Shown here piece after piece: positions 2,830 through 20,597 of a DNA stretch of 20,597 nt (positions are counted from its first letter, which is position 1; each line of letters begins with the position of its first letter). This DNA comes from an uncultured virus (IMG/VR IMGVR_UViG_3300028840_004776) (taxonomy: Duplodnaviria > Heunggongvirae > Uroviricota > Caudoviricetes), in IMG/VR virus record IMGVR_UViG_3300028840_004776. The stretch is one strand, 5' to 3'. The notes below the pieces were generated by a model that saw nothing but the letters and a program-made list of their open reading frames with translations, ran no database searches and was not told where the DNA came from. Position numbers and translations under genes: made by a program.

Positions 2830-2860
2830 CCCCATGGGGGATACTGAGTCCCCCATGGGG
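2830..2860. promoter_or_regulatory. GC-rich hairpin formed by two CCCCATGGGG palindromes
   Basis: Arms ccccatggggga (2830-2841) and tcccccatgggg (2849-2860) are exact reverse complements with a 7-nt loop; intergenic. Confidence 0.5.
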
Positions 2861-2890
2861 AAGTTTTGTTTTTGTTGTATTTAATCGAGT

Positions 2891-3754
2891 TTAAAACGTA
2901 TTTGGATCAAAATCAGTAGGGTCGCCGACGTATTGTTCTGACTGTTGTTCTTCGTCAATTTCGTCATTTCTTTGAATTGATCTAGATAAATCAAGCTCTT
3001 TCATTTGTTCGTACAGTGCTTTAAATGAAGCTCTTTCATCCGGTTGTGTTGGTGTTAAAGATGAAAAATTTACAACGTAAAATGTTCCGCGTGCATTCGT
3101 TTCTTGTGTCGTTGACAATTCGCATTTTATTCCGTAAAGCGGTGATCTAATTGACCGAACATAAGATAAAAACCTTCTTACGGATTTAATGCTTTTTCCA
3201 TGCAATGTCACGAAAAATGGATATGGAATATCATTCGACAGTTCAAGACCTAACAATGTGTATGTTTTTTTGCATTCCGGCGGTTCATTGTTTGATCCCC
3301 ATTTTGAGCTCGGACAAACCGACATATATTTATTTGGACCAACTTTTTTATGACATGTTTGACAAACAGGATTTTCAATATCTGGATCTGGTGTGATTCT
3401 ATTAGAGCTGCGGCACAACGGCATACCGGTGCGATCATCAGTATCGGAAGATGGCCAAAGTACCATTCCCTTTCGATACAATAAAAATGCACATTGTGCA
3501 CTTTGAACGTAATTTTCAGATAGCGTATCGAGTAGACCACCCGGAGCCCAGCCAGGTTTTAGTTTCGATGATGTTCCTTGAAGGATTTGAAATCTGGGTA
3601 GTATGAGATCATCATCATCCCAGTCCTCGAAACCATCATTGGCATCATCAACGGTTGAATTTTGTTGTGCAATAGAAACATCAACCGTTTCGATTGTTTG
3701 TGTTTCTTCTTGTGTTTCTTCTTGTGTTTCTTTTTTTGTTTTTTTTCGTGCCAT
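2891..3754 (-). CDS. Phage single-stranded DNA-binding-like protein
   Basis: DDLILPRFQILQGTS N-terminal motif, Cys cluster, NARGTFYVVNF, and an acidic tail ending in Phe (DPTDFDPNTF) as in phage SSBs; near a PD-(D/E)XK nuclease. Confidence 0.6.
   Translation of the reverse strand: MARKKTKKETQEETQEETQTIETVDVSIAQQNSTVDDANDGFEDWDDDDLILPRFQILQGTSSKLKPGWAPGGLLDTLSENYVQSAQCAFLLYRKGMVLWPSSDTDDRTGMPLCRSSNRITPDPDIENPVCQTCHKKVGPNKYMSVCPSSKWGSNNEPPECKKTYTLLGLELSNDIPYPFFVTLHGKSIKSVRRFLSYVRSIRSPLYGIKCELSTTQETNARGTFYVVNFSSLTPTQPDERASFKALYEQMKELDLSRSIQRNDEIDEEQQSEQYVGDPTDFDPNTF
3698..3732. repeat. 12-bp tandem repeat x~3 encoding ETQE
   Basis: Unit ttgtgtttcttc at 3698, 3710 and 3722 (last partial). Confidence 0.85.
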
Positions 3755-3839
3755 TATTCCCTCATTTTACTGTTGTGACCCCATAGGCGGCTACACGGCG
3801 GTCCCATGGGTGTATGCGTTATTATTGTATATAAAATAT

Positions 3840-4250
3840 TTATGCAATCAACTTATTTTTTATTTTTGTTTCTTGATAATCAAATTGCAAACTGTTTATT
3901 ATTTTTGTTATTCTAAAATGATTTTCTTCTTTCGTTTTTTTATTAATTATTGTTATGTTATGCATAGAACTGTTATTATTTTGTTTATTGGTATAATATT
4001 TTATATATTGTTCAATAACGTTTTTGGTATTATTGCCAAAGAATATCAATGATTTATTTGGAAATTTCGACGAAAATATTTCAAATAAAAATTCTACGTT
4101 GGGATTTACCAAGTATTGTTGTTTATACTCTAATAAAATTTCTTCTATCCATTCATCAAATGTCATTGTTTTGTTTTTATTATTTTTTACAATTATTCTT
4201 AATAAACAAAACAATATTTGTTGAAATTTTTTCGTCGTTAGTGTTTGCAT
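3840..4250 (-). CDS. Hypothetical protein
   Basis: 136 aa, co-oriented, starts 3 nt after the stop of the pentapeptide gene; no recognisable motif. Confidence 0.55.
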   Translation of the reverse strand: MQTLTTKKFQQILFCLLRIIVKNNKNKTMTFDEWIEEILLEYKQQYLVNPNVEFLFEIFSSKFPNKSLIFFGNNTKNVIEQYIKYYTNKQNNNSSMHNITIINKKTKEENHFRITKIINSLQFDYQETKIKNKLIA

Positions 4251-4253
4251 TCT

Positions 4254-5156
4254 TTAATCCCCTATTGGTTCCAGTAACATCAAACTTGAACATCTTGCTT
4301 TACCATCTGAATTGTATGGAACAATGTTATCGGCTAAATCCTTCCATCGAAGTAAACATTTCCATATTTTCTTACCATTTTCTTTTTTGATCCATTTTAA
4401 CGTGGCATAATTTATTCCGCATCCACATTCTTCGGCTGGGTTTCTATTTACAGTTTCTTCAATGATAAATCCTGGTTGTATTATCCAATTTTTGGGTGGA
4501 TAATACTTGAATTTGGTTTCAAATGCTTTATATACAACAAATCCATCTTTTGTTTCTTCAAAATTTTCTTCCAAGAATTTTATAGAGCTATAAAAGTTTT
4601 TTACTTTGGATAAATTAGTACAGGATAAATCAATATTGGATAAATTAGCATTGGATAAATCGGCATTGGATAAATCGGCACAAGATAAATCAGTATTGGA
4701 TAAATCAGTATTGGATAAATTAGCATTGGATAAATCGGCATAAGATAAATTGGCATAAGATAAATTAGCATTGGATAAATCAGTATTGGATAAATTAGCA
4801 TTGGATAAATCGGCATAAGATAAATTGGCATAAGATAAATTAGCATTGGATAAATTAGTACAGGATAAATTAGTACTGTGTAAATCAGTATTGGATAAAT
4901 TAGCATTGGATAAATCGGCATAAGATAAATCAGCACCGGATAAATTAGTACTGTGTAAATTAGCATAAGATAAATTAGCATTGGATAAATCGGCATAAGA
5001 TAAATTAGCATTGGATAAATCGGCATAAGATAAATTAGCATTGGATAAATCGGCATAAGATAAATTAGCATCGGATAAATTACAACCAGCAAACCATAAT
5101 TTTGATAAATCTTGGTTTGGACCAAGACTATTTAAATCAATGGTACTTTCTCTCAT
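4254..5156 (-). CDS. Pentapeptide repeat protein with C-terminal phage-type domain
   Basis: About 32 consecutive [N/Y/C][A/T][D/N]LS units, then a globular domain (GFVVYKAF...ECGCGINYATLKW...VPYNSDGKARC); AAGGAGG RBS. Confidence 0.93.
   Translation of the reverse strand: MRESTIDLNSLGPNQDLSKLWFAGCNLSDANLSYADLSNANLSYADLSNANLSYADLSNANLSYANLHSTNLSGADLSYADLSNANLSNTDLHSTNLSCTNLSNANLSYANLSYADLSNANLSNTDLSNANLSYANLSYADLSNANLSNTDLSNTDLSCADLSNADLSNANLSNIDLSCTNLSKVKNFYSSIKFLEENFEETKDGFVVYKAFETKFKYYPPKNWIIQPGFIIEETVNRNPAEECGCGINYATLKWIKKENGKKIWKCLLRWKDLADNIVPYNSDGKARCSSLMLLEPIGD
4605..5087. repeat. 15-bp periodic repeat encoding the pentapeptides
   Basis: Recurrent units such as ggataaattagcatt and agataaatcggcata-like variants, with exact longer duplications. 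Confidence 0.9.
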
Positions 5157-5173
5157 TTTTTTCCTCCTTGCTT

Positions 5174-6286
5174 TTATCGAATCTTATCAGCAATAATACC
5201 AAGTTCTTCATGAGCAATATCGAGTTGTTCATAAAAATCCCAGTCATCGTACCAACACAGGGATTTGTATTCACAAACACCGTACGGTCCAATACAATGC
5301 GTGCCACGCGGGGCGGGATACCCATGGGTATCATAGAATTTGATCAGCCTAGACGTGTTCCAAGCTAACTCAAGGGCATTTATGATATTTGCTTCCGATA
5401 CAGGAATGATGTATCGCCCAAAAAATCTGCTTTGTTCTTTTGTGTATAATTCAATACACCGATTGTAATATTGAAGTGGTGTTTCATCATTTGCCCTAGA
5501 TCGTTTTCCTGTTGTTGATTTGGTTTTTTTCAATGGTTTGATTGATGGTTTTCTTATGATATCCAATACAGTAAATTGTGGATATCGTTTATCATGTTGT
5601 CCCTCCATGAACTGATACAAAGGCATTTGAATGCCAAATTCCAAGTTTTCAATAATTGTAGAAAACTCCATGGAGGTTGTCTTCAATTCCCATGAAACCG
5701 TTTTGTGACACTTTTTATGAATACCTTCACCATCACTTTTTCCAGCAATTGCAAATGATTTCGATAATCTAAGAGTTTTGGGGTTTACGAGATGCATTGG
5801 TCCTAAAACTCTTTCAAAGTATTTGAAATCAATTTCTTTATCTATTGTTTTGTTTGTAAAATTGGTTTCATGGTATATACTGTTATATATTTTCACCATT
5901 GCTCTTGCTTTTATGAGATCAAACCTTGCGTATTGTTTAATCTTATCAAGATCTTCTTCTGGTAGTAATTTTTCTAATTTATTGATAATATCTTTGAATG
6001 TTTCTACGACTTTAAGAATTGCAAACTCAAGCGAATGTCCACTTTTTAGAAAATCAAGTGCTAGATGTACCGCACTTCCAATTGTTGTTGCAGCATTGTA
6101 TTTTATTGGATATATTGCTTTGTTATATGACAAATCATATTTTTTTGGACATATATAAAATGTATTTATAGAGGAATTAGTAAGCACTCTTTTTGGGATA
6201 TTCTCTGTCCAAAGACAATCAATATAAAATATTGATTTTTTTTGCTTGTTTTTTTCTTTTGATTGTTGTATATTATTTTTATTCAT
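5174..6286 (-). CDS. PD-(D/E)XK superfamily nuclease (RecB/Cas4-like phage exonuclease)
   Basis: LTNSSINTFYICPKKY, IGSAVH, IAGKSDG, WELKTT, QMPLY and C-terminal C......CEYKSLC (one plus three Cys pattern of the Fe-S staple). Confidence 0.85.
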   Translation of the reverse strand: MNKNNIQQSKEKNKQKKSIFYIDCLWTENIPKRVLTNSSINTFYICPKKYDLSYNKAIYPIKYNAATTIGSAVHLALDFLKSGHSLEFAILKVVETFKDIINKLEKLLPEEDLDKIKQYARFDLIKARAMVKIYNSIYHETNFTNKTIDKEIDFKYFERVLGPMHLVNPKTLRLSKSFAIAGKSDGEGIHKKCHKTVSWELKTTSMEFSTIIENLEFGIQMPLYQFMEGQHDKRYPQFTVLDIIRKPSIKPLKKTKSTTGKRSRANDETPLQYYNRCIELYTKEQSRFFGRYIIPVSEANIINALELAWNTSRLIKFYDTHGYPAPRGTHCIGPYGVCEYKSLCWYDDWDFYEQLDIAHEELGIIADKIR

Positions 6287-6334
6287 TTTTTGATCCTTGT
6301 TTGATCCTTATTTGTATTTTTTTTTATGTATCAT

Positions 6335-6352
6335 GGCTCCCCCGGGGGAGCC
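6335..6352. promoter_or_regulatory. Perfect 18-bp GC-rich palindrome
   Basis: ggctcccccgggggagcc is its own reverse complement; intergenic between 6286 and 6366. Confidence 0.55.
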
Positions 6353-6365
6353 TATTTATTTCGGC

Positions 6366-6758
6366 TTATTCTCTCAATAAATCACATACTTCAATTCCAG
6401 TTATTTCAGATAATAAAACCAGGGATTTCAAAGAAATCCCTGATTTGTTACCTAACAAGCCATATATATTAACTATTTTAATATTATTATTAAATTTATT
6501 ATTATATTTTTTGATTTCTATTTTTAGAGTGGTGTCATTTTTAATTAATTTTAATTTGATATTTTTTTTAATAATTAATTTGTGTTTATTTGTGATGCGC
6601 TCAATTCGAGCATCATCACGATTCAAAGTGCTCATTTGCATACCTTGTCTGACTATATCTCTAAATTGTAAAGATTTTTTTGATTCAGTCAAGATTTTTT
6701 TTGATTCAGTCATGAAAAAAATTTCTTTTGATTTCTTACATAAATAATGTATACTCAT
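6366..6758 (-). CDS. Hypothetical basic protein, possible Cro/C1-type HTH regulator
   Basis: C-terminus GISLKSLVLLSEITGIEVCDLL resembles the end of XRE-family HTH domains; divergent from the primase gene; start uncertain. Confidence 0.45.
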   Translation of the reverse strand: MSIHYLCKKSKEIFFMTESKKILTESKKSLQFRDIVRQGMQMSTLNRDDARIERITNKHKLIIKKNIKLKLIKNDTTLKIEIKKYNNKFNNNIKIVNIYGLLGNKSGISLKSLVLLSEITGIEVCDLLRE

Positions 6759-6786
6759 GAAAGCTTATGTGCTCTATAAACGAAAC

Positions 6787-6825
6787 AAAAAAAAAAAAAA
6801 AAAACGCGGATTGTAGATCCGCGTT
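6787..6825 (-). terminator. Intrinsic terminator-like hairpin
   Basis: Stem cgcggat (6805-6811) / atccgcg (6817-6823), 5-nt loop, followed on the minus strand by an 18-nt T run (A run 6787-6804 on plus). Confidence 0.7.
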
Positions 6826-6855
6826 AAAAAAAATTGATTGGAGGTCTTTTGATAT

Positions 6856-9240
6856 ATGTTAATTAAAGATAATAACGAATCAGAACAAAATGTCAACAAC
6901 AAAAAAACAATTTGTGACATAGCTGTTTGGTACGCGACAAAATTTGGTTGGTTCGTGTTTCCTGTTTGGTGGATAAATCCGCATACTGGCCATTGTGCTT
7001 GTCAAGAAGGACCAAACTGCACACGCCCAGGAAAGCATCCACTTGTCGGGCAATGGAAAGTTGCAGCAACTAATTTTGATAAAACAATAATGCATTGGTG
7101 GAAAAAATGGCCACTTGCAAATATTGCGATTATAACAGGAAGAAAATCAGGATTGGTTGTTGTTGATATTGATTTAAAAGATAAAATCAGTGGAATTAAA
7201 GCAAATTTATCATTCCCTGATTTAGTAGAAGAAATACAGTTGAATACAAATACAATTACTGCAATAACTGGCTCAGGAGGAAAGCATCTATTTTATAAAT
7301 ATCCAGAAATAGATAAAAAAATTCCATGTGTTACAAACCTACGTAATGGAATAGATATTAGAGCCGACGATGGATATGTTGTTGTCCCACCATCAATACA
7401 TATTTCAGGAAAACGATATTCATGGAATATGTATTTCAAACCATCAAAAGCAAAATTACTTGAATTAAATGACAAATTACTCAAACTAATACTTGAAAAA
7501 AAAACACCAACCAAACCACCAACCAAAAAAAAACAAAAAAAAGATAAAGACAAAGATATTCTGCTGAAAAATATTCATACCACAAAATTTGGGTATTCGT
7601 TACTGCGCATCCATATTAAAGAACTAAATGAAGCAGAAAAAGGCACACGAAATGATACTTTAAATAAAATCTCATATACAATTGGTGGTTATATTTCAAC
7701 AGGATTCATTAATGAATATGAAGCCATTGTTGAATTAAAAAATGCAGCAAAAAAAATTGGACTATCAGAAAATGAAGCATCAAGAACCATTCAGTCCGGA
7801 ATAAAAAACGGATTAAAGCACCCAATGACTCCCATGGGGGATTCATTGACAATTCGACGATTAACGGATCATGGAAATGCATACCGAATAATTGGTGAAT
7901 TCGGTGAAAACATTAAATATTCAACAACAAAAGGTAAATGGTATCGATGGAACAAACATGTATGGAAAATTGATGAGTTTGATACCGCATCATTGGATTT
8001 ACATATTAGTATGTTGGCCATTATGCAAAATGAAACTAGTAATATTGATGACAAAGATGAAAAAAAAGTTGTTCAAAAATTCATCAATAAATCACACAAT
8101 CTTCCAGCAATTAATGCAACCAGAAAGTTGATAAAACAATTTGATATTGTTACCGTAAATGATCGCTTTTTTAATAGAGACAAAATGAAGCTAAATTGTC
8201 TAAATGGAACGATAAATTTGAAAACCGGAGATCTGTGTGCACATATTCCGGATGACTACATAACAAAAACAATTCCAGTGGAATATAATAGAAACGCAAA
8301 ATGTAACAGATGGATGCAGTTTTTGAATGAAATTATGGATGGAAACAAAGAAGTTATTGATTACATTCAACGAGCTATTGGATATTCATTAACAGGAAAA
8401 ACAAAAGAACAAGTATTTTTTATTATGCACGGTGATGGCGCAAACGGAAAATCGACATTTATAGAAGTTATTTCTGAATTGTTGGGAGATTACTTCAAAC
8501 AAGCAGATATGAATTCATTTTTAGAAACAAATCAAAACAACAATATAAAAAATGATCTTGCACGGTTATCCGGAGCAAGATTTGTGACATCATCAGAAAT
8601 AGAACAAAATAAGAAATTATCTGAAAGTTTGGTGAAATTATTAACTGGAAGCACGAATATCACTGCAAGATTTCTTTATAAAGAATATTTTTCTTATAAA
8701 CCAAACTTCAAACTTTGGCTTGAAACAAATCATAAACCAAAAATAAAAGGCACCGACAAAGGTATTTGGCGTCGAATAAATTTGATTCCTTTCAACGCGT
8801 CCTTTGACAACGAAAAACGTGACAAAGATCTTCGTGAAAAATTATTAAATGAACTTCCGGGAATACTTAATTGGGCAATCGAAGGTTGCGTTCAATGGCA
8901 AAAAATTGGTCTCGGTCCACCCATGGTTGTGCTCGCTGCTAACTCTGAGTATCAAAATGAGCAAGATCCAATTGGAGAATTTTTGGATAATTGGTGCAAT
9001 ATTGGAAATGATTATTACACCTCAACAGGATCACTTTACAAAGGATACCAAGAATGGTGTAAAATCAACGGGCAAAAACCATGGACACATAAAGCATTCA
9101 GTATGTACATGAAGAAAAAATTTGAATATAAAAATGTCAATGGCAGAAAAAGAATTTTCATTGGCGTAGATTTACTACCGGCATATGAACGATTTGAAGA
9201 TGAGAATTTTTGTGAAAATGGTTTTGATGGAAAGTTTTAA
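6856..9240 (+). CDS. Bifunctional primase-polymerase fused to D5/P4-family SF3 helicase
   Basis: Prim-Pol motifs CAC...C.RPGKHP, ANIAIITG, VVVDID, TGSGGKHLFY, DIRADDGYVVVPPSIH; LTDHGNA and LNCLNGTINLKTG (D5 N-terminal); Walker A GDGANGKST; VKLLTG, TNHKP, GIWRR. Confidence 0.95.
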   Translation: MLIKDNNESEQNVNNKKTICDIAVWYATKFGWFVFPVWWINPHTGHCACQEGPNCTRPGKHPLVGQWKVAATNFDKTIMHWWKKWPLANIAIITGRKSGLVVVDIDLKDKISGIKANLSFPDLVEEIQLNTNTITAITGSGGKHLFYKYPEIDKKIPCVTNLRNGIDIRADDGYVVVPPSIHISGKRYSWNMYFKPSKAKLLELNDKLLKLILEKKTPTKPPTKKKQKKDKDKDILLKNIHTTKFGYSLLRIHIKELNEAEKGTRNDTLNKISYTIGGYISTGFINEYEAIVELKNAAKKIGLSENEASRTIQSGIKNGLKHPMTPMGDSLTIRRLTDHGNAYRIIGEFGENIKYSTTKGKWYRWNKHVWKIDEFDTASLDLHISMLAIMQNETSNIDDKDEKKVVQKFINKSHNLPAINATRKLIKQFDIVTVNDRFFNRDKMKLNCLNGTINLKTGDLCAHIPDDYITKTIPVEYNRNAKCNRWMQFLNEIMDGNKEVIDYIQRAIGYSLTGKTKEQVFFIMHGDGANGKSTFIEVISELLGDYFKQADMNSFLETNQNNNIKNDLARLSGARFVTSSEIEQNKKLSESLVKLLTGSTNITARFLYKEYFSYKPNFKLWLETNHKPKIKGTDKGIWRRINLIPFNASFDNEKRDKDLREKLLNELPGILNWAIEGCVQWQKIGLGPPMVVLAANSEYQNEQDPIGEFLDNWCNIGNDYYTSTGSLYKGYQEWCKINGQKPWTHKAFSMYMKKKFEYKNVNGRKRIFIGVDLLPAYERFEDENFCENGFDGKF

Positions 9241-9246
9241 TTTTGT

Positions 9247-10011
9247 TTACTTATAAACAATTGAATATGAAGTATTTTTAAAAATATCTTTTACTGGAAC
9301 ACGTGCCTGTAAATTTTCTGTAATAATATCCACTTGATCAAAAACCATTTGATGTGGATTCGTATCAAATGGTTTTGGTGTATTTGATTTGCGTAAAGAA
9401 TTTATCTCAAAATTTATTGTATCAATTGAAGACAATGTGTCATTTTTTGTTGATACAAAATCTTGGGTATCAGCTAGTTGTTGATGAACGATCTCCCCAT
9501 GGGTCAGATACAGAATTACTAAATTGTCTTCGATAGCATTTAGGCCATCATTGTAGCCCATTTCCCAAATGAACTTAAATTCGTCATTTTTTGATATAAT
9601 TTCCCAATACTCAGAAAAATTTAAGAAATTTGGATCTTTTTTGATATTTTTTTCCCACTCTGACCAGAAATGATCAAGTACGGCATCGTGAGCCGAGGCG
9701 GCAGCAGATGTCGTTACAACTGTCTGTGCATCGATGACCAATTGGACGCCGCTTGACTCAAGTAAAAACAAACCTCTCAGGTGTTCAGAAAAATCAATGA
9801 TATTTTTTACACGATATACCGTTATTGATTCATCTACTTCAATTACTTGTGTGACGTAGAGAAAAGTGCCTTGAGCTTTCCTCAAGGCATCAATCAATTT
9901 TTCATAAGTTTCTGTCGTGTCGTATGGTTGACCAATAAATTGGCCAACATAATAATTGTTTTTAGAGAAAAAGAATTTTTCTCTCTCTTCCCTATGAACC
10001 CCTTTTTCCAT
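9247..10011 (-). CDS. Hypothetical protein
   Basis: Long ORF convergent with the primase; start reassigned to ATG at 10011 (MEKGVH...) behind GGAGGT at 10021-10026. Confidence 0.75.
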   Translation of the reverse strand: MEKGVHREEREKFFFSKNNYYVGQFIGQPYDTTETYEKLIDALRKAQGTFLYVTQVIEVDESITVYRVKNIIDFSEHLRGLFLLESSGVQLVIDAQTVVTTSAAASAHDAVLDHFWSEWEKNIKKDPNFLNFSEYWEIISKNDEFKFIWEMGYNDGLNAIEDNLVILYLTHGEIVHQQLADTQDFVSTKNDTLSSIDTINFEINSLRKSNTPKPFDTNPHQMVFDQVDIITENLQARVPVKDIFKNTSYSIVYK

Positions 10012-10072
10012 TTTTTTGTGACCTCCATTATTAATGGTATACAAAATAATAATTGTATACAAGAAAAAAATA

Positions 10073-10155: not shown

Positions 10156-10209
10156 ATTTTGGTGTAAGCAAAATATTCACAAATACATAAATGTAGTATC
10201 AGCAACAAA

Positions 10210-12870: not shown

Positions 12871-12887
12871 ACACAAAGGAGAAAAAA

Positions 12888-13434: not shown

Positions 13435-13452
13435 GGTAAAGGGACAAAGAAA

Positions 13453-13962
13453 ATGACAATTAATAACGCATTAAGAAATCTTGAGTATCGACTTGATGGT
13501 TTAAAAAATAAAAACAAATCTTATGAATCCATTACTTGGTTTTGTGAGAGGTTTGCGCATGATTTCGTTTATTTGGCCAGTCCATATAGTTCCCCATGGG
13601 ATCAATTGAAAAAGAATCGATTTAAAGAAATTAGTTTGATTGCTGCTTATTTGTATCGTCAATTAATTAAATTAAATACTGTTATTTATTCACCGATATG
13701 CCATGGAGTTCCAATGGCTGTGGTTGATAAAAATCTTCAAGGCGATTATGAATATTGGCGAAAATTTGACGAGGCTTTTATGTTAAAATCAACAAAGTTG
13801 ATGGTTGTTTGCATGGGTGGTTGGAAAAAATCCAAGGGTGTAAGAGCTGAAATTGATTTTGCTAAACAAATAGATTTACCTATTTATTATTGTTTTACTA
13901 AGAACAGATCTATGTTCATAACAAATAAAGATAGTGATCTTGTTGGATTTAATTTGGGTTGA
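13453..13962 (+). CDS. DUF1937-family protein (nucleoside 2-deoxyribosyltransferase-like fold)
   Basis: VYLASPYS, YSPICHG, YEYWRKFD and GWKKSKGVRAEIDFAKQIDLPIYY motifs. Confidence 0.85.
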   Translation: MTINNALRNLEYRLDGLKNKNKSYESITWFCERFAHDFVYLASPYSSPWDQLKKNRFKEISLIAAYLYRQLIKLNTVIYSPICHGVPMAVVDKNLQGDYEYWRKFDEAFMLKSTKLMVVCMGGWKKSKGVRAEIDFAKQIDLPIYYCFTKNRSMFITNKDSDLVGFNLG

Positions 13963-13990
13963 AAAAAAGGAGCAAAAAAGGAGCAAAAAA

Positions 13991-14590
13991 ATGGATGAGA
14001 CAAAAAGAAGAATGCTTGAGTTATTGAAAAATAAATCATTCAAGCAAGGTGAATTTACTCTTGCATCGGGTAAAAAGAGCGATTTTTTTATTGATTGCAA
14101 GGAAGTAACTCTTATGGCTCAAGGGTTATTGTATTCTGGTTTGATTTTTTTTGATTTTATTAAACGTTGGTATTTGTGCGGAAGTTATAAGGTAGATTAT
14201 CTTGTTGGTGTTCCGCTTGGTGGTTGTACGATTGTTGATGCTACTGCTTTTGTTTGTTCATTGAATAAAATTGATATGAACATTCTTTATATAAGAGATA
14301 CTAAAAAGAATCATGGAACAAAACAACGAATTGAAGGTTTGAAATCAATACATAAAGGTAATAAGGTTATTTTGATTGAAGATGTTGTTACAACCGGTGG
14401 ATCATCAATAAATGCAATTAGGGTGCTTCATGATGCTGGATTAAAAGTCGAATGTGTTTTGACTTTGATTGATAGATTAGAAGGTGGATCAGAGAATATC
14501 AAAAACAAAACAGGAGTTTATCTTTATTCTATATTTACAAGAAATAATTTTATCAAAGAAATTGATAGTAAAAATGAGGTGATAAAATGA
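13991..14590 (+). CDS. pyrE: Orotate phosphoribosyltransferase
   Basis: GEFTLASGKKSDFFID, GVPLGG, IRDTKKNHGT flexible loop, PRPP motif VILIEDVVTTGGS, LIDRLEGG; start reassigned to ATG at 13991 behind AAGGAG. Confidence 0.92.
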   Translation: MDETKRRMLELLKNKSFKQGEFTLASGKKSDFFIDCKEVTLMAQGLLYSGLIFFDFIKRWYLCGSYKVDYLVGVPLGGCTIVDATAFVCSLNKIDMNILYIRDTKKNHGTKQRIEGLKSIHKGNKVILIEDVVTTGGSSINAIRVLHDAGLKVECVLTLIDRLEGGSENIKNKTGVYLYSIFTRNNFIKEIDSKNEVIK

Positions 14591-15660
14591 ATAAAAAAGA
14601 TACAAATTTATCATACAAAGAATTAATAAAAAGATTTGAAGAACGTATAAAAAGTTGTGATAGTTGCAATAGTCGCAAAGAACAAGAATATGGACATGGA
14701 CAAAAACAGATACCACAGGCATTGCAGGCTGCGCAAGCATTGCAGGCTGCGCAAGCATTGCAGGTTGCGAATGTGTTAAAGGTACCTTACGCATCTCATG
14801 CTCCACAGGCTCCACAGGCAGCGCAGGCATCTCATGCTCCACAGGCAGCGCAGGCTCCACAGGCTCCACAGGCAGCGCAGGCAGCACAGGCAGCGCAGGC
14901 AGCACAGGATCCACAGGCAGCGCAGGCAGCACAGGCAGCGCAGGCAGCGCAGGCAGCACAGGCAGCGCAGGCAGCACAGGCTCCACAGGCAGCGCAGGCA
15001 GCACAGGCTCCACAGGCAGCGCAGGCAGCACAGGATCCACAGGCAGCGCAGGCAGCACAGGATCCACAGGCAGCGCAGGCAGCACAGGATCCACAGGCAG
15101 CACAGGCAGCACAGGATCCACAGGCAGCGCAGGCAGCACAGGATCCACAGGCAGCACAGGCAGCACAGGCTCCACAGGCAGCGCAGGCAGCACAGGATCC
15201 ACAGGCAGCACAGGCAGCACAGGCTCCACAGGCAGCGCCTCAACAAGAACAAGCAGAAAAATATGAATTAAATGTTATTATTTATTTTGATAAAAATTAT
15301 TGGAATGGAGTTTTTGATTTTGTGGTCAATTGTTTTGATATTGGTATAACAAAAGAAAAAATTCATAAAAGGATTGATGAATTTATAAAAATAATTGTAA
15401 TCAAATATTTTGATAAAATAAATACCAATGGATCATTATTAGGTACCAAAATTATTAATGAATTAAATATTGATGTCGAATCTGTGTTTTGTGAAAAAAA
15501 CAAAGGAAAAGGACCAGTCGTTGTTTATATTGATTCTGATAATAAGTTGTTTTCTTTTGATAATACTTACTGTGTGTGTAAGATGTTTGAAGTTGTTGTT
15601 CATAATGAATTATTTAGGTCGTTGTATGACTTGATACAAAGAGATACAAAAAGGAGATAG
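14587..15660 (+). CDS. Hypothetical protein with a long Gln/Ala/Pro tripeptide-repeat tract
   Basis: 357 aa; ATGA overlap with pyrE; AT-rich unique ends flank about 170 aa of QAA/QAP/QDP repeats. Confidence 0.75.
14715..15238. repeat. GC-rich 9-bp-unit tandem array with 18- and 27-bp higher-order periods
   Basis: Units caggcagcg, caggcagca, caggctcca, caggatcca; preceded by gcattgcaggctgcgcaa repeats. Confidence 0.95.
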
Positions 15661-15664
15661 AAAA

Positions 15665-16624
15665 ATGAAACAAGATAACAAACAAACCAAATCAGATAAT
15701 GGTGATATATTAAAAAAGAATATGTTGTATCTGTCTGGATTGAATACTGAATACCTTTTAAAAATTCATACTCAGAAATTTCATGATGTTTTTGAGTTGG
15801 AATTTAAAGAAGGAAAAATTGATCGTGGTAAATTAATTATGAAATTAGTTTCTGAATATACAGCGCAAGGAATTCATGCTGCTAGTGATGTGATCGAAGA
15901 AACACCCATGGGGAATTTTGATTTGCGAGATATTAAAAACCAAGGCAGTCTTAAGGTTTATAAAATTGATTATAGCAACAGCGATGATGACAGCGATGAT
16001 GATAACGATGATGACAGCGATGATGATAACGATGATGATAACGATGATGATAACGGCAACAACAATAATGATCCAATGGTTGATATCAGAAAAGCATGGA
16101 AAGAAATTGAAGTATTAAAATACGAAAAGGAAACAAAACTCAAAGATATAAAGGGTAAAATAAAAGACAAGGAACACGAAACAAAAACGCTTGTTTTTTC
16201 TCAAGTTCGTGATGTGGATAAATTGCATAGTAGTTGGGTTGAATTAAATAAACTAAAAGAAGACAAAAAAGATTTATCAAAAAAATATAACGAAAAGATA
16301 AAAAATTTAGACAGAACAAGAGATAGGTTGCTGAGAGATGTTAGACAGCTAAAATTGTTTGATTCTTGTTTAAATAAATCAGAACAGTTTGAGAAACTAG
16401 ACACCGATGATGTTGAGTTTGCTGATGAATTTAATAATAAACAACAAGTTGATCCTAAAAGATATGTTGTAAAAAAGAAGGCACGAAAAAACAAACAGAC
16501 AACGGACAGCACGGAACAGACAACGGACAGCACGGAACAGACAACGGACAGCACGGAACAGACAACGGACAGCACGGAACAGACAACGGACAGCACGGAA
16601 CAGACAACGGACAGCACGGAGTAA
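15665..16624 (+). CDS. Hypothetical protein with acidic tract, predicted coiled coil and C-terminal heptapeptide repeats
   Basis: 319 aa; AAGGAG RBS; DDDS/DDDN tract; K/E/L-rich helical region; QTTDSTE x6 before the stop. Confidence 0.8.
   Translation: MKQDNKQTKSDNGDILKKNMLYLSGLNTEYLLKIHTQKFHDVFELEFKEGKIDRGKLIMKLVSEYTAQGIHAASDVIEETPMGNFDLRDIKNQGSLKVYKIDYSNSDDDSDDDNDDDSDDDNDDDNDDDNGNNNNDPMVDIRKAWKEIEVLKYEKETKLKDIKGKIKDKEHETKTLVFSQVRDVDKLHSSWVELNKLKEDKKDLSKKYNEKIKNLDRTRDRLLRDVRQLKLFDSCLNKSEQFEKLDTDDVEFADEFNNKQQVDPKRYVVKKKARKNKQTTDSTEQTTDSTEQTTDSTEQTTDSTEQTTDSTEQTTDSTE
15978..16055. repeat. 12-bp tandem repeat x6.5 encoding the Asp-rich tract
   Basis: Units acagcgatgatg and ataacgatgatg. Confidence 0.9.
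16495..16620. repeat. 21-bp perfect tandem repeat x6
   Basis: Unit acagacaacggacagcacgga encoding QTTDSTE. Confidence 0.95.
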
Positions 16625-16628
16625 GACA

Positions 16629-16826
16629 ATGGATGCAATCGTTTGTCCATATTGCAAGGTCGAATATGAAATAGAAAGTGATTATGATTTTGATGAAATA
16701 GTTACATATCATGGAAGTCAGGATGGACCAGTTGAAATCGAATGTCCAGATTGCAATAGAGTTTTTTATGTTAAGGAATATGTTAAACGAATTTATTTTG
16801 TTTATAAAGACAAAAAAGATGCTTGA
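16629..16826 (+). CDS. Small zinc-ribbon protein
   Basis: 65 aa with CPYC and CPDC; GGAG upstream. Confidence 0.8.
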   Translation: MDAIVCPYCKVEYEIESDYDFDEIVTYHGSQDGPVEIECPDCNRVFYVKEYVKRIYFVYKDKKDA

Positions 16827-16841
16827 TGAAAGAATACAAAA

Positions 16842-17096
16842 ATGGGAAAAACAAAAGAAGAAGAGATAAATAAATTTGCGATATTTGTAGAAGATCAAAA
16901 AAGAAGATATTGTGAGTTTTTGGAAGATATTATATTAGATATTATTGATAATAAAATAGTACCAATTAATATGATTTATGAAAAAGAAAAAGAAACGTGT
17001 TATATCAATGGAAGAATTGTGAATATTCCATCAAACAAAGAATCTATTACCATTGAGTTACTTAGGAGAAAAAATGATTGGTCAAAAAGTTATTGA
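16842..17096 (+). CDS. Hypothetical protein
   Basis: 84 aa, co-oriented, fills the gap in the operon. Confidence 0.6.
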   Translation: MGKTKEEEINKFAIFVEDQKRRYCEFLEDIILDIIDNKIVPINMIYEKEKETCYINGRIVNIPSNKESITIELLRRKNDWSKSY

Positions 17097-17766
17097 GGCG
17101 AGAGATATTCCGGATGCCTGGTTTCAAGCCGTTGATTGCCTTCTTAAAAAAGGCCGGCAATGGACAGTAACCCATGGGTCATATAAGGGTCAAAAAAGAT
17201 GGGAGTTTGATTATGTGACAATACATATTAAGTATCCTGGATCTCGACCTCTTGTTCCCGAGATGCCAGTTCATCTTTCTCATATACCGCCGCCTACAAC
17301 AATGGAGTATGTTGAAGAATATCTTCCATATTTAATGGAAGATGAAGAACTTAAAAAAAACGAGCAATACACATATGGGCAACGTATAAAATCTCAAATG
17401 AATGAAATAATAAGTAGATATACAATCCATGGGTTTGGTAGTAATCAGGAATGTATTACTGTAGCACGACCAGAGGATATTGAGTTAGATGATCCTCCTT
17501 GTTTGAGAACTATAGATACTAGAATTTATAAAAAGGAATGTTTATTACCGAATGAAAAACAAGCATTGCATTTTGTTGTATATTTTAGGTCTTGGGATTT
17601 ATGGAATGGTTTTCCTGTTAATTTGGCTGCTATTCGGTTAATGCAAGAGTACATGGCTGAGCAAATTGGTGTTGAAGCGGGTGAAATAATTGCTTCATCA
17701 AAAGGTTTACATATTTATGATCATGTGTGGGATATTGCTAAATTAAGAACGGATTTTAAGAAATGA
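17074..17766 (+). CDS. thyA: Thymidylate synthase (short, archaeal-like ThyA type)
   Basis: YTYGQRI, catalytic PPCL, YFRSWDLWNGFPVN and SKGLHIYD; start reassigned to ATG at 17074 behind AGGAG. Confidence 0.85.
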   Translation: MIGQKVIEARDIPDAWFQAVDCLLKKGRQWTVTHGSYKGQKRWEFDYVTIHIKYPGSRPLVPEMPVHLSHIPPPTTMEYVEEYLPYLMEDEELKKNEQYTYGQRIKSQMNEIISRYTIHGFGSNQECITVARPEDIELDDPPCLRTIDTRIYKKECLLPNEKQALHFVVYFRSWDLWNGFPVNLAAIRLMQEYMAEQIGVEAGEIIASSKGLHIYDHVWDIAKLRTDFKK

Positions 17767-17981
17767 CTAAGCCAATCGAAATAGATCTTTATTGTGTTTG
17801 TTGCGAAACAGATACAGGACATAATAGATATGTGTTACAAGATATTATTATTTGTCAAAGATGTGATAATTTAATGTCACAAAAAGAAAGAAATAATTTA
17901 TCATATCTTCATCGAATGAGATTAATTTTAACTGATCAATGCCATATAAATAACATCATAAAAAACATTGAATATAGGTAA
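17763..17981 (+). CDS. Small putative zinc-binding protein
   Basis: 72 aa with CVCC and CQRC; ATGA overlap with thyA. Confidence 0.6.
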   Translation: MTKPIEIDLYCVCCETDTGHNRYVLQDIIICQRCDNLMSQKERNNLSYLHRMRLILTDQCHINNIIKNIEYR

Positions 17982-18006
17982 AAACAGAAAAAAGGAGAAG
18001 TAACCC

Positions 18007-20597
18007 ATGGGATTGCGCTTTGAAGCTAATTTTGAACAAGATACTGCGTGGTATGAAAAAGAGACAAAAGAAGGTGTAAAAAGGATTGCTAAAGTTATTG
18101 ATTCAGATGGTAAAATTATATTTGAAAAAGAAATTATTGCACCAAAAAATTGGTCGCAAAATGCTGTAAATATTGTTGCTTCTAAATTTCTTAGTAAAGA
18201 CGAAAATTCAGTTTATCAATTAGTTGATAGGGTTGTTGATACAATAGCAAACTGGGGAAAAGATGATAATTATTTTAATACAATCAATGATTTTCATGTA
18301 TTTATAAGTGAATTAAAGTATTTGATCATTAATCAGTATGGACAATTTAATAGTCCTGTTTTGTTTAATATTGGTATCAATAATTATCCACAGTGTTCAG
18401 CTTGTTTTATAAATTCTGTAGAAGATACCATGGAATCAATTATGGATTTAGCTAAAACAGAAGGATTGATTTTTAAATACGGAAGTGGGTCAGGTGTAAA
18501 TTTATCAACACTTCGTTCGAGCAAAGAACATGTTACCGGAGGTGGATATGCGTCCGGACCTATTTCGTTTATGAAGGGATATGATGCGTTTGCTGGTGTA
18601 ATAAAAAGCGGTGGTAAACTTAGGCGTGCTGCAAAGATGGTTATTTTGAGTATTGATCATCCAGATATTATGAAATTTATTTGGTGTAAATCAAAAGAAG
18701 AACATAAAGCAAATACATTGATTAAAGAGGGGTATTCTGGCGGAATAAATGGGGAAGCTTATTCATCTGTGTTTTTTCAAAATGCAAATAATAGTGTTCG
18801 TGTTAATGATGAATTTATGACACTTGTTGCACAAAATAATGCTGATTTTGATTTTGAAACAAAAGCAGTAACAACAGGTGAATTGATTCAAAAATATAAT
18901 GCTTATGATTTGTTGTTTGAAATTGCTCAAGCCGTACATGAATGTGGTGATCCAGGAATACAATTTGATGATACAATCAACGAATGGAATACATGTAAAG
19001 AATCAGGAAGAATTAATGCATCAAATCCGTGTTCCGAATTTATTTGGCTTGATGATTCGGCTTGTAATTTAGCATCATTGAATTTATTGAAATTTTTAAA
19101 TAATAATAATGATTTTGATGTAGTAAAATTTAGTAAAGCAGTTGATATTTTTATAACGGCTCAAGATATTATTATTGATAAACAAAGATATCCAACTGAA
19201 AAAATTAAGAAAAATTCTAAAGAGTATAGACCACTTGGTCTTGGGTATACAAATTTAGGCGCATTATTAATGTGTATTGGCGAACCATATGATAGTGAGT
19301 ATTCAAGGAAGTTTTCTGCTGCAATAACATCATTGATGACTGGTGAGGCATATCTTCAAAGTGCTAAAATTGCTTCTGAAAAATCTCCATTTTTGAATTA
19401 TGCAAAAAATAAAATATCGATGAACAATGTAATAAATAAGCATAATATAGAAACATGTTGTTTATTGGAAAAATGCAATGTGCGTAGTTTGGAAAACATA
19501 CTAATGTTAGCAAAAACAACATGGGAAGATGCGATACGTATTGGTAGTAATTTTGGTTATAGGAATGCACAGACTACATTGTTAGCTCCGACTGGAACCA
19601 TATCTTTTATAATGGATTGCGATACCACCGGAATTGAGCCAGATATTTCGTTAGTAAAAAGAAAGAGTCTTGTTGGTGGAGGTGTAATGAAAATTGTTAA
19701 TAATTCAGTCAATAGATCTCTTGAAAAACTTGGTTATAACAAGAATGAACGAATAGAAATTATTAAATACATAGAAAATAATGAAACAATTATTGGTGCT
19801 CCTATATTACAAGAGATTGATATTCCTGTATTTGATTGTGCTTTGTCTGGTGTAGATGATCGATGCATATCATATATGGGGCATCTTCTTATGATTGCAG
19901 CGGTTCAACCGTTTTTATCAGGTGGTATTTCAAAAACCATTAATATACCTCATAGTTCAACAGCAGAGATTATATTTGATATTTATTGCAATGCATGGAA
20001 ACTTGGATTAAAATCTGTTTCTGTATATCGCGAAGGATCAAAACAAGCTCAGCCAATAAATATAAAAAAGAAAGAAAAGAAAGAAAAAAAAGAAAACAAT
20101 TTATTGCATAGAAAACGAATGCCTGATGAACGGAATAGTTTGACACATAAATTTTCCATAAGTGGACATGAAGGATATTTGACGGTTGGAATGTATAATA
20201 ATGGTATGCCTGGTGAAATTTTTGTTAGGATATCAAAGGTTGGATCAACAATAAGTGGATTGATGGATTCATTCGCAATAGCTATTAGTATGGCATTACA
20301 ATATGGTGTTCCATTGGATGTATTGATTGATAAATATTCGCATATCAAATTTGAACCGAGTGGTTTTACAACGAATTCAGATATTCCTGTTGCGCAGTCT
20401 GTTATTGATTATATATTTTGTTGGTTGGATAAAAAGTTTTTATCGACAGATAATAAAAACAACAAAGACAGTAAAGACAACAAGGATAGCAAAGACAGTA
20501 AAGACAACAAGGATAGCAAAGACAGTAAAGACAACAAGGATAGCAAAGACAGTAAAGACAACAAGGATAGCAAAGACAGTAAAGACAACAAGGATAG
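18007..20597 (+). CDS. nrdJ: Adenosylcobalamin-dependent (class II) ribonucleotide reductase with TSCPD-type domain; 3' end beyond window
   Basis: Absent from the ORF track because no stop falls in the window. Hand translation from ATG 18007 (AAGGAG RBS): FNSPVLFN, PQCSACFI, KYGSGSGVNLS, SGGKLRRAAKM, CGDPGIQF, ASNPCSEF, ACNLASLNL, RPLGLGY, APTGTISF, SGGISKTIN, YREGSK, GEIFVRISKVGST, FEPSG. Confidence 0.96.
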   Translation, partial: MGLRFEANFEQDTAWYEKETKEGVKRIAKVIDSDGKIIFEKEIIAPKNWSQNAVNIVASKFLSKDENSVYQLVDRVVDTIANWGKDDNYFNTINDFHVFISELKYLIINQYGQFNSPVLFNIGINNYPQCSACFINSVEDTMESIMDLAKTEGLIFKYGSGSGVNLSTLRSSKEHVTGGGYASGPISFMKGYDAFAGVIKSGGKLRRAAKMVILSIDHPDIMKFIWCKSKEEHKANTLIKEGYSGGINGEAYSSVFFQNANNSVRVNDEFMTLVAQNNADFDFETKAVTTGELIQKYNAYDLLFEIAQAVHECGDPGIQFDDTINEWNTCKESGRINASNPCSEFIWLDDSACNLASLNLLKFLNNNNDFDVVKFSKAVDIFITAQDIIIDKQRYPTEKIKKNSKEYRPLGLGYTNLGALLMCIGEPYDSEYSRKFSAAITSLMTGEAYLQSAKIASEKSPFLNYAKNKISMNNVINKHNIETCCLLEKCNVRSLENILMLAKTTWEDAIRIGSNFGYRNAQTTLLAPTGTISFIMDCDTTGIEPDISLVKRKSLVGGGVMKIVNNSVNRSLEKLGYNKNERIEIIKYIENNETIIGAPILQEIDIPVFDCALSGVDDRCISYMGHLLMIAAVQPFLSGGISKTINIPHSSTAEIIFDIYCNAWKLGLKSVSVYREGSKQAQPINIKKKEKKEKKENNLLHRKRMPDERNSLTHKFSISGHEGYLTVGMYNNGMPGEIFVRISKVGSTISGLMDSFAIAISMALQYGVPLDVLIDKYSHIKFEPSGFTTNSDIPVAQSVIDYIFCWLDKKFLSTDNKNNKDSKDNKDSKDSKDNKDSKDSKDNKDSKDSKDNKDSKDSKDNKD
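20464..20597. repeat. 27-bp perfect tandem repeat, at least 5 copies, in frame within nrdJ
   Basis: aaagacagtaaagacaacaaggatagc (KDSKDNKDS) at 20464, 20491, 20518, 20545 and 20572 (cut by the window edge). Confidence 0.95.

Follow-up and report, generated by a model that had tools for sequence, protein, structure and literature searches.

A palindromic octamer repeated about once per kilobase in an AT-rich phage-like genome resembles the cyanobacterial HIP1 word

The octamer CCCATGGG was studied in an uncultured tailed-phage-like genome (IMG/VR IMGVR_UViG_3300028840_004776), of which a stretch of 20,597 nt with a G+C content of 32.2% was analysed and is referred to here as the window. Its genes include those for a PD-(D/E)XK nuclease, a PrimPol-D5 primase-helicase, a RuvC-like resolvase and a thymidylate-synthase-like protein, and a 1.6-kb repeat-rich non-coding region (10012-11626) adjoins the primase-helicase gene. 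The phage genome is at least 82.6 kb in size and is present in sediment and seawater metagenomes. An independent metagenome contig matches positions 1-6804 without differences and reaches 2 kb further upstream, so that 22.6 kb and 27 genes were examined in total. The 21 exact copies of this 8-base palindrome which had been counted by hand in the initial annotation were all recovered at the same positions (Table 1), a density of 1.0 per kb. They are not confined to the window, as two more lie in the 2 kb upstream, giving 23 in 22.6 kb.

Table 1. Exact copies and one-base variants of CCCATGGG in the window. Residues are those encoded across the octamer.
Feature	Position	Location	Residues	Remarks
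Outer-base variant CCCATGGA	1963-1970			
Outer-base variant	2702-2709			
Two exact copies	2831-2838, 2852-2859	87-nt spacer, Pam3-gp34-like gene / RecD2 N-terminal gene		27 and 48 nt upstream of start at 2803
Inner-base variant CCCATAGG	3780-3787	Beside site 3803		
Exact copy	3803-3810	Intergenic spacer		48 nt upstream of start at 3754
Exact copy	5321-5328	PD-(D/E)XK nuclease gene, minus strand	T-H-G	
Exact copy	7831-7838	PrimPol-D5 primase-helicase gene	P-M-G	
Outer-base variant	8920-8927			
Exact copy	9496-9503	Unknown gene 9247-10011, minus strand	T-H-G	
46-nt tandem array, four exact copies	10207-10364	Non-coding region 10012-11626		Copies at 10210, 10256, 10302, 10348
Exact copy and outer-base variant ACCATGGG	10507-10514, 10589-10596	Within 10492-10612		
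Inner-base variants	11475-11482, 11493-11500			
Exact copy	11697-11704	Gene 11627-12271	P-H-G	
Three 48-nt tandem units	11814-11957	Gene 11627-12271	P-M-G	Copies at 11840, 11888, 11936
Exact copy	12054-12061	Gene 11627-12271	T-H-G	
Exact copy	12359-12366	RuvC-like resolvase gene	S-H-G	91 nt past start
Exact copy	13593-13600	DUF1937 / nucleoside 2-deoxyribosyltransferase-like gene	S-P-W	Third frame
Exact copy	15905-15912	Unknown gene 15665-16624	P-M-G	
Exact copy	17171-17178	Thymidylate-synthase-like gene	T-H-G	
Outer-base variant	17426-17433			
Exact copy	18004-18011	nrdJ start		ATG is the nrdJ start codon

Firstly, the number of copies expected by chance was determined. Markov models of order 0, 1, 2 and 3 predict 0.04, 0.13, 0.09 and 0.19 copies, respectively, and the enrichment therefore persists against this composition-aware background; the mean in 100 dinucleotide-preserving shuffles was 0.06 and the largest value 2, compared to 21 observed. 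Expectations rise to 1.9 at order 4, 11 at order 5 and 18.4 at order 6, the last two being circular because the 6- and 7-mer counts themselves consist of the octamer. When the octamer was masked from the background, 0.05 copies were expected in the 22.6 kb against the 23 observed. Among all 256 palindromic octamers CCCATGGG stands alone at the top, the runner-up, TTTATAAA, having 9 copies where 4.5 are expected. Five of the 21 copies are extras within two tandem arrays, and collapsing those arrays (46 nt, four copies; 48 nt, three copies) leaves 16 independent copies, in agreement with the earlier estimate of about 16.

The tandem extras and the order-6 expectation are what could be said for an octamer that is not real but arises from composition, from tandem duplication, from a protein motif, or artificially during assembly or library construction. 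Chimeric joins at the sites, raised earlier as a possible source, were not seen: contigs from three runs in three studies, two of which runs look like a single data set filed twice, span the sites, are identical there and have no joint on any of them. Identical sequence in other assemblies and the lack of joints mean that the set of sites is real DNA. With the Markov, masked and codon-aware expectations exceeded, three reading frames used and independent assemblies identical, the artefact or by-product reading is refuted, and we give it almost no weight.

Fourteen of the 23 copies are inside genes, several of them in mid-gene, and within genes the octamer is read in all three frames. The frames given in the initial annotation for the primase, the nuclease, the thymidylate-synthase-like protein, the resolvase and the DUF1937 protein are correct, as is the overlap with the start of nrdJ. 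In 1000 synonymous-codon shuffles the mean number of coding copies was 2.09 and the maximum 6, compared to the 14 observed, so the enrichment also persists against a codon-shuffled background. All five PMG tripeptides and all eight [TSPA]HG tripeptides (13 of 13 together) are spelled with the octamer, although the codons this requires are rare (CCC is 15 of 220 proline codons and GGG 36 of 322 glycine codons). The tripeptides themselves are in excess of what amino-acid composition predicts, PMG by 24-fold (5 seen, 0.21 expected) and [TSPA]HG by 6-fold (8 seen, 1.36 expected). The data show that the octamer overrides the codon preferences of the phage, and even its amino-acid composition. The earlier statement that it is not a protein motif is upheld by the codon-aware shuffles, the spelling of the tripeptides and their excess; it is neither a protein motif, nor a codon effect, nor a composition effect.

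Two of the coding sites could be compared with homologous proteins. In an alignment of 14 homologues of the primase-helicase, site 7831 falls in a gap-rich, non-conserved linker. At site 17171 the histidine and glycine are conserved in thymidylate-synthase homologues and the preceding residue is variable; threonine, as ACC, completes CCCATGGG here. Relatives have Q or D at this threonine and do not carry the octamer (3 of 80 loci, the only ones matched by the pattern). The word was absent from all 80 loci around primase relatives and all 80 around thymidylate-synthase relatives, and none of eight whole IMG/VR records that were counted carries it.

Eight one-base variants were found where 1.8 are expected. 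These comprise the five near matches reported before (1963, 2702, 8920, 10589 and 17426) and three others at 3780, 11475 and 11493. Five of the eight, a small number on which to base the statistic, are altered at an outer base, and that concentration indicates that the inner CCATGG is kept. With 23 exact copies to 8 variants, the data show that the octamer is kept almost without decayed copies. The three units of the 48-nt array (repeat family D10) are mutually just 81-88% identical, but CCCATGGG is intact in each of them. Palindromic arms had been described as often extended. Site 5321 is indeed the centre of a perfect 16-nt palindrome (5317-5332) and site 11697 that of a 14-nt palindrome (11694-11707), but extension is not general, the flanks being nearly uninformative except at position +1 (C in 0 and G in 18 of 40 non-identical half-sites).

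Taken as a whole, these properties make it very probable that CCCATGGG is a selected or driven tag acting at the DNA level. A sequence-specific protein with two-fold symmetry would read it on duplex DNA, and for that reason it would be made and maintained at this level, whether selection or a directional drive of repair or conversion were responsible.

Action in RNA, with paired copies forming hairpins that terminate, stabilise or process transcripts, is in comparison a distant prospect. There is a tendency to pairing among the intergenic copies. In minus-strand RNA a stem of 15 bp joins the copies at 2831 and 2852 (-38.6 kcal/mol, z = -4.95), and those at 10507 and 10589 are the inner ends of an inverted repeat of roughly 20 nt and close a long stem (fold of 10480-10620, -34.2 kcal/mol, z = -3.1). 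A lone octamer, however, cannot fold, as it offers only 2-3 bp around a loop of 2-4 nt, and the majority of the copies are single and intragenic. For the spacer 3755-3839, which holds site 3803, and for the nrdJ start region, shuffled sequences fold at least as well (z = 0.18 and 1.35, respectively). In addition, hairpins made from paired copies do not require exact palindromy.

The distribution of the sites bears on what the protein might be. The density is 3.5 per kb in non-coding and 0.70 per kb in coding DNA, a difference of about 4-5 fold. Of 18 collapsed sites, 11 fall in the interval -60 to +250 around a start codon compared to 5.9 at random (P = 0.012), this interval having been picked after inspection. 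Regular spacing was not significant (P = 0.09). The units of the 46-nt array (repeat family D7) are 98-100% identical, and the non-coding region that holds them, together with one more exact copy and one variant, is origin-like or regulatory.

These features, and the base preference at +1, are those expected if the copies were sites for a phage-encoded dimeric DNA-binding protein other than a methyltransferase, which we regard as rather unlikely. It might be a genome-wide repressor or organiser, like those acting at stoperators or dispersed centromere sites. Another candidate is the part of the PrimPol-D5 primase-helicase that binds the origin; the array would then be the origin, and loading or priming would take place secondarily at the dispersed copies. 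Non-coding density, gene-start bias and the tandem array fit a DNA-binding regulator or initiator at least as well as they fit methylation. The stoperators of cluster A mycobacteriophages are many repressor sites spread across a phage genome; they are asymmetric, aligned with transcription and almost all intergenic. Like them, CCCATGGG is a short word in dozens of near-exact copies genome-wide, many near gene boundaries. Unlike them it is a perfect palindrome, is largely intragenic and is accompanied by no identified repressor gene in the 22.6 kb. Families of binding sites are usually longer and more degenerate than these exact copies with their uninformative flanks. None of the window proteins has a recognisable HTH, RHH or ParB-like domain, and nothing comparable to the word was seen in the 80 loci around relatives of the primase, nor were relatives with their own dialects of it found.

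A Chi-like self-tag, by which the phage RecD2-like helicase and PD-(D/E)XK nuclease, or a helicase-nuclease of the host, would spare or process tagged DNA, is improbable. Both a two-part RecD2-like helicase and the nuclease are encoded in the 22 kb, which as a gene neighbourhood is weak support on its own, and a spacing of about 1 kb is like that of recombination signals which are over-represented. Known Chi sites lack symmetry and are biased in orientation. The palindromy of CCCATGGG would free such a signal from orientation.

The reader of the word may alternatively be sought outside the phage. A search for the methyltransferase or DNA-binding protein envisaged in the initial annotation found neither a methyltransferase domain or motif among the 27 genes nor a recognisable sequence-specific DNA-binding protein in the 22.6 kb of phage sequence. 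The window proteins also gave no Pfam hit to a SprT-like protein. This lack of a reader gene would suit a host word (HIP-like, or of an uptake or repair type), read by host proteins and carried by the phage through long co-residence or recombination. Density and independence of frame equal those of chromosomal HIPs (PMC4390886). Genes amounting to about 6.5 kb, including the five small ORFs which interrupt RecD2, are free of sites and would fit recent acquisition, a grouping made post hoc. Neither a close relative of the phage nor its host was found. The search for genomes with dispersed copies was a weak test: among at least 120 contig loci listed as having three nearby copies there was none, as all were local tandem arrays, and 117 of the 120 listed had a G+C content of 45% or more. 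No organism with CCCATGGG as an iterated palindrome was found in the literature searched. We consider a host word quite unlikely.

Uptake sequences are asymmetric chromosomal signals in competent bacteria. They are described as USS and DUS in the Pasteurellaceae and Neisseriaceae (PMC1939737), and HIP1 has recently been proposed as an uptake signal (PMC13756078). CCCATGGG is like them in occurring about once per kb, in being intragenic regardless of frame and in having spacer pairs that can form hairpins. Unlike them, it is tied to DNA uptake by nothing that was found.

Viruses such as this phage are normally expected to avoid palindromes. CCCATGGG resembles the still unexplained HIP1 of cyanobacteria, yet it sits in an AT-rich virus. 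HIP1 is GCGATCGC, and GGGATCCC, TCGATCGA, GGCGCC and others are alternate HIPs of cyanobacterial chromosomes (PMC4390886, PMC5861425). The proposal of a HIP1-like system stands as regards density, use of all frames, presence in non-coding DNA and a bias of variants to the outer bases; the cognate methyltransferase it implies was not seen in the 22.6 kb. The functions put forward with that proposal, namely a methylation mark, a binding site or a recombination or packaging signal, are putative. Both are exact G+C-rich palindromic octamers at about 1 per kb, HIP densities being 0.5-2.5 per kb (Elhai 2015, PMC4390886). Both are found in every frame of coding DNA and reach a higher density in non-coding DNA, and neither codon nor amino-acid usage accounts for them. 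Variants of HIP1 that differ by one base are likewise concentrated at the first and last bases (PMC4390886), and the inner 6-mer is of the restriction-modification type. The differences are the sequence itself, its absence from the relatives examined and its carrier, which is virus-like, 32% in G+C and from sediment and seawater, not a cyanobacterial chromosome.

The leading reading, which we hold tentatively, takes CCCATGGG as a true 'genome word' of HIP type on duplex DNA with a methylation-linked mechanism; the link to methylation is itself possible but somewhat doubtful. Following Elhai's HIP model, a phage- or host-encoded methyltransferase of inner CCATGG-type specificity would mark the sites, and a methylation-dependent process needing a mark roughly every kilobase would then favour the full octamer. 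Observed over expected is about 100-450 for CCCATGGG, which equals or exceeds the 15- to 300-fold over-representation of HIP1 (Xu et al. 2018, PMC5861425). Outside the octamer CCATGG is also enriched, with 9 copies against 2.6-3.2 expected, and CATG occurs at about the expected frequency (76 and 73, respectively).

All 21 exact copies of the octamer CCCATGGG listed in the initial annotation were recovered by a pattern search of the window, and the near-matches, reading-frame assignments and extended arms described there were also correct. The octamer is an exact palindrome with the core CCATGG. The window has a G+C content of 32.2%, and Markov models of orders 0 to 4 predicted 0.04, 0.13, 0.09, 0.19 and 1.9 copies, respectively. 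In 100 dinucleotide-preserving shuffles of the window the mean was 0.06 and the maximum 2. Models of orders 5 and 6 predicted 11 and 18 copies; these expectations are circular, because 21 of the 27 CCCATG and 21 of the 24 CCCATGG in the window are the word itself. Enrichment persisted under composition-aware nulls, with 21 copies against 0.19 for the order-3 model and, when the word was masked from the background, 23 copies against 0.05 in the 22.6 kb made up of the window and the sequence immediately upstream. Overall the enrichment is about 100- to 450-fold. The next palindromic octamer in the window, TTTATAAA, occurs 9 times compared with 4.5 expected, and none other is enriched in the manner of CCCATGGG. 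Two tandem arrays account for five surplus copies among the 21, so the earlier estimate of about 16 independent copies was right; with the arrays counted once there are 16 sites in the window and 18 in the 22.6 kb.

The upstream sequence, 2,009 bases, was taken from metagenome contig L122 (8,968 bases, the only one found), which is 100% identical to positions 1-6804 of the window. It adds two more exact copies of CCCATGGG, both within the gene for the helicase core of a RecD2-like protein, and the enrichment is thus not confined to the window, as the initial annotation had allowed it might be, but continues 2 kb upstream. Matching sequence was found in three sequencing runs from three studies of sediment and seawater metagenomes, all three as assembled contigs, although two of the runs (X1 and X2) appear to be the same data deposited under two entries. 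The run contigs span the sites with zero differences, and their breaks lie in tandem repeats and in a poly-A run rather than in the word. Chimeric joins at the sites, for example from NcoI-based library construction, had been named as a possible source; no listed joint coincides with a site and the contigs match, so that an artefact of this type is excluded as far as assembled contigs show. The word is present in independent assemblies, and neither chance nor artefact is a credible source for it. The identical primase protein is recorded on three contigs, the longest of 82,597 bases, and the genome is therefore at least 82.6 kb, of which 22.6 kb was examined. In X1 and X2 the contigs add up to a depth of about 45-75 over 4670-20000 but of no more than 3 over 1-4669. 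Such a hole proves nothing. The listed contigs begin at 5042, inside the pentapeptide repeat, yet L122 bridges both sides of the drop at 100% identity. The drop may come from an assembly break, from filtering or from a population variant in the left arm.

Fourteen copies lie within the 27 genes of the 22.6 kb, in all three reading frames (5, 8 and 1 copies), and the proteins run through them uninterrupted. They are read as P-M-G five times, x-H-G eight times and S-P-W once. All five PMG tripeptides are written CCC-ATG-GGG and all eight [T/S/P/A]-H-G tripeptides xCC-CAT-GGG; both outer codons are rare, CCC making up 15 of 220 proline codons and GGG 36 of 322 glycine codons. From amino-acid composition 0.21 PMG and 1.36 [TSPA]HG tripeptides were expected, compared with the 5 and 8 observed (24-fold and 6-fold over-representation, respectively), and it follows that the DNA word dictates the amino acids. 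One thousand within-gene synonymous shuffles gave a mean of 2.09 coding sites and a maximum of 6, against 14. This is a conservative null, since the shuffled genes keep the tripeptides and the rare codons. An alignment of 14 homologues places the primase site in a linker with many gaps and no conservation. In the thymidylate-synthase-like protein the H-G at the site is conserved, and the variable residue before it is Thr (ACC), which completes the word; only three of 80 loci around thymidylate-synthase relatives were matched by the pattern search, and these have Q or D there, without the word. Codon choice and even the protein sequences are bent to hold the word, which is a feature of the DNA maintained against codon preference and protein composition, symmetric, sharply bounded and present about once per kb.

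The flanks of the word are nearly uninformative except at position +1, where C is found in none and G in 18 of 40 non-identical half-sites. The full 10-mer CCCCATGGGG occurs at five sites, and G+C within 20 nt is mildly raised (0.41-0.43, compared with 0.32 overall). With their arms, the palindromes measure 8-16 nt. Small mobile palindromic elements (MITE, REP or GC-cluster) are recognised by a conserved longer element with its own ends or target duplications, and the word is not placed among them because no flank is conserved beyond position +1. One-base variants are scarce, with 8 observed against 1.8 expected; in this small sample five of the eight deviate at the first or last base, retaining the inner CCATGG, and one at each of three inner symmetric positions. 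Copies of CCATGG that lie outside the octamer are also in excess, 9 where 2.6-3.2 were expected, but CATG shows no enrichment (76 observed, 73 expected). A sharp, symmetric word with few decayed copies looks more like restriction-modification-type specificity, or a sequence that is actively renewed, than a family of transcription-factor sites. Two A+T-rich hexamer palindromes are absent from the window, TTCGAA (5.8 expected from an order-2 model) and GTTAAC (3.7 expected), which may represent restriction avoidance, the opposite of the CCATGG enrichment.

Phages are generally expected to purge short palindromes, these being restriction targets, and the phage studied here does the opposite. To our knowledge the only described counterpart is HIP1, an iterated palindrome of cyanobacteria that has gone unexplained for three decades. 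The initial annotation had proposed a HIP1-like system, and the likeness was upheld in abundance, density, independence of frame and codon, and the position of the deviations. HIP density is given as 0.5-2.5 per kb (PMC4390886); the word is found here at 1.0 per kb (23 copies in 22.6 kb), or 0.8 per kb for the 18 collapsed sites. Like the HIPs, it is an exact palindrome far above composition-aware expectation, present in non-coding DNA as well as in every frame of genes, and unexplained by codon or amino-acid usage. One-base deviations from HIP1 are described as biased to the first and last positions, the inner hexamer being a methyltransferase site (Elhai, PMC4390886), and the five outer-base variants among eight match that bias, in a small sample. 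HIP1 is also reported as more enriched in non-transcribed DNA (Xu et al., PMC5861425), and here too the word is denser in non-coding (3.5 per kb) than in coding DNA (0.70 per kb). The carrier differs: HIPs are carried by cyanobacterial chromosomes, whereas the word lies in a phage-type module. Further hallmarks of HIPs are a genome-encoded methyltransferase for the word or its core (PMC4390886), a distribution over the whole genome at quasi-periodic intervals and, for HIP1, conservation of sites between related genomes beyond neutral expectation (Xu et al. 2018, PMC5861425). We call the word HIP-like, and not a member of the HIP family: it does not lie on a cyanobacterial chromosome, and the likeness covers abundance, density, independence of frame and codon, and the position of the deviations.

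A methyltransferase or DNA-binding protein for CCATGG or CATG, which the initial annotation had suggested looking for, was not found among the 27 proteins of the 22.6 kb using Pfam, PHROGs, NCBIfam, PADLOC and motif searches, and no methyltransferase, HTH, RHH, ParB or SprT-like domain was recognised in them. Nor did any protein of the window give a PaaX-like match. PADLOC returned RecD-type matches and one small family (PDLC01138), described as an unknown small protein "sometimes fused to CARF", and nothing else; the ORF concerned also matches two PHROGs without assigned function. The genes at 9247-10011 and 11627-12271, which flank the repeat region, had no usable Atlas match, and a permissive Pfam search with 13 ORFs without assigned function gave nothing credible. 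The word is probably read as duplex DNA by a two-fold symmetric protein. A methylation-linked, HIP-type system with a CCATGG core is tentatively placed first among the possible mechanisms, because of where the one-base variants fall, the enrichment of CCATGG in its own right and the density of the word.

Nearly as likely as a methylation-linked system is a phage DNA-binding protein that is not a methyltransferase. Such a protein might regulate or organise the whole genome, or it might be the part of the primase-helicase that binds the origin, in which case the 46-nt array would be that origin. This reading is favoured by the enrichment in non-coding DNA, by the tandem array and by a bias to gene starts. 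With each array counted once, 11 of the 18 sites fall in the interval from -60 to +250 around a start codon, compared with 5.9 at random (P = 0.012), a hint only, because the interval was chosen after seeing the data. The spacing of the sites is slightly more even than random, though not significantly (coefficient of variation 0.68, P = 0.09). Phage stoperators are asymmetric words, oriented with transcription and essentially intergenic, which are bound by a cognate repressor; the word differs in being a perfect palindrome with 14 of its 23 copies in coding DNA, and no repressor-like domain was found. A promoter element was rejected, as no -10-like or TATA-like box follows the sites at a fixed distance, and sigma-70-like matches in 9900-11700 are below the shuffle mean (7 compared with 10.2). 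Intergenic copies tend toward pairs able to pair mutually as RNA or single-stranded DNA. Sites 2831 and 2852 fold together with -38.6 kcal/mol (z = -4.95), and sites 10507 and 10589 with z = -3.1; single copies, like two other spacers, gave folds no more stable than those of shuffled sequence, and it is very unlikely that RNA hairpins are the primary function of the word.

No close relative of the window was detected by megablast of its whole length against 50,697 phage records, or by scanning IMG/VR with single proteins, the primase and nrdJ; the nearest primase is 36% identical. An exact 25-mer of the 46-nt repeat is absent from IMG/VR. Profile scans of IMG/VR collected 160 loci, 80 near distant relatives of the primase and 80 near those of the thymidylate synthase, and none of them has an iterated CCCATGGG or a comparably enriched palindromic octamer. 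The best other palindrome among them was ATCCGGAT, with 8 copies against 0.58 expected in L377, a contig of 7,778 bases and 40% G+C encoding a distant thymidylate-synthase-like relative. This locus may come from a different virus with an iterated palindrome of its own. In eight whole IMG/VR records CCCATGGG was at background or within one local array: there were 7 copies in 182,770 bases (G001), none in 109 kb, none in 7.8 kb and 2 in 120 kb, and in the other four (G005-G008) all were single local arrays or stray copies. Two nearby copies were found at at least 121 loci of IMG/VR, three nearby copies at 46 loci of IMG/VR (a complete scan) and at at least 120 loci of genome_contigs (185,579 species genomes). 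None of the matches listed in these three scans is dispersed; all are local tandem arrays, mostly in G+C-rich DNA. That the word is a tag owned by the host and carried by the phage is less likely than either a methylation-linked system or a phage binding protein. An archaeal host, suggested by the methanogen-type thymidylate-synthase model, was rejected since the closest named homologues are in bacterial MAGs. The literature found on palindromes or octamers in phages describes no iterated palindrome of this kind and does not name CCCATGGG, and the HIP literature found concerns cyanobacteria only.

It is possible, though doubtful, that the octamer is the address of a viral self-identity system with a two-fold symmetric reader, and one of a widespread and undescribed set of lineage-specific "genome words" in phages and giant viruses. 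For the reader, whose gene would lie in another part of this genome of 82.6 kb or more, a genome organiser, a methyltransferase partner and a helicase-nuclease governor are all conceivable. A compact viral genome carrying about one site per gene would narrow the search for the reader of such a word to a far smaller system, and would also extend HIP-type tags beyond cyanobacteria.

The genes of the region form a phage-type module for replication, recombination and nucleotide metabolism (Table). The RecD2-like helicase is split, its core lying about 2 kb further downstream of the N-terminal gene on the same strand, with five small ORFs between them that are without the octamer. Control of this helicase and the PD-(D/E)XK nuclease by the word, in the manner of Chi, is distinctly unlikely. 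Shine-Dalgarno-like GGAG(G) boxes precede the starts, and neighbouring genes overlap by ATGA.

Genes and tandem arrays of the region. Positions are those of the window except where L122 is named.
Feature	Position	Strand	Remarks
RecD2-like helicase, core gene	L122:7037-8419		Upstream of window; aligns to positions 339-740 of 763-residue RecD model
Small ORF between RecD2 parts	964-1290	minus	PADLOC PDLC01138, E = 6.8e-18, full length
RecD2-like helicase, N-terminal gene	1907-2803	minus	OB + HHH domains
Pam3-gp34-like protein
Pentapeptide-repeat protein
PD-(D/E)XK nuclease
PrimPol-D5 primase-helicase	6856-9240
Tandem array, 46 nt x 4	10207-10364		Carries CCCATGGG copies
Tandem array, 48 nt x 3	11814-11957		Carries CCCATGGG copies
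RuvC-like resolvase
DUF1937 / deoxyribosyltransferase-like protein
Orotate-phosphoribosyltransferase-like protein
Thymidylate-synthase-like protein	17074-17766		Type first modelled on methanogens
nrdJ

Between the leftward and rightward genes is a 1.6-kb non-coding, repeat-rich region (10012-11626), which looks like an origin or a divergent control region. Its repeats comprise two 49-nt units (10073-10161), the 46-nt array and, at 10602-10857, several copies of a unit of 27-52 nt in which T-runs follow a short hairpin; the region also has a hairpin with a 15-bp stem at 10845-10882 and a long stretch rich in A+T. Terminator-like hairpins number 9 in the non-coding region, compared with 1.3 in shuffles. 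Rfam and tRNA scans of the window found nothing. The thymidylate-synthase-like protein matches TIGR03283 end to end, at 90.5 bits, below the cutoff of 174.6. Its many homologues, with 60-77% identity, are on contigs of 180-290 kb, and the gene therefore circulates among large phages, uncultured and widely differing in G+C. Tandem repeats that keep the reading frame are unusually common in the genes (4516-5172, 14671-15290, 15966-16073, 16473-16640 and 20421-20597), which include a 15-nt pentapeptide repeat, a 9-nt repeat of about 40 units (A-A-Q/P-Q-A), a 12-nt Asp-rich repeat and a 21-nt repeat of six units. A 27-nt K/D/S/N repeat closes nrdJ, where the window stops.
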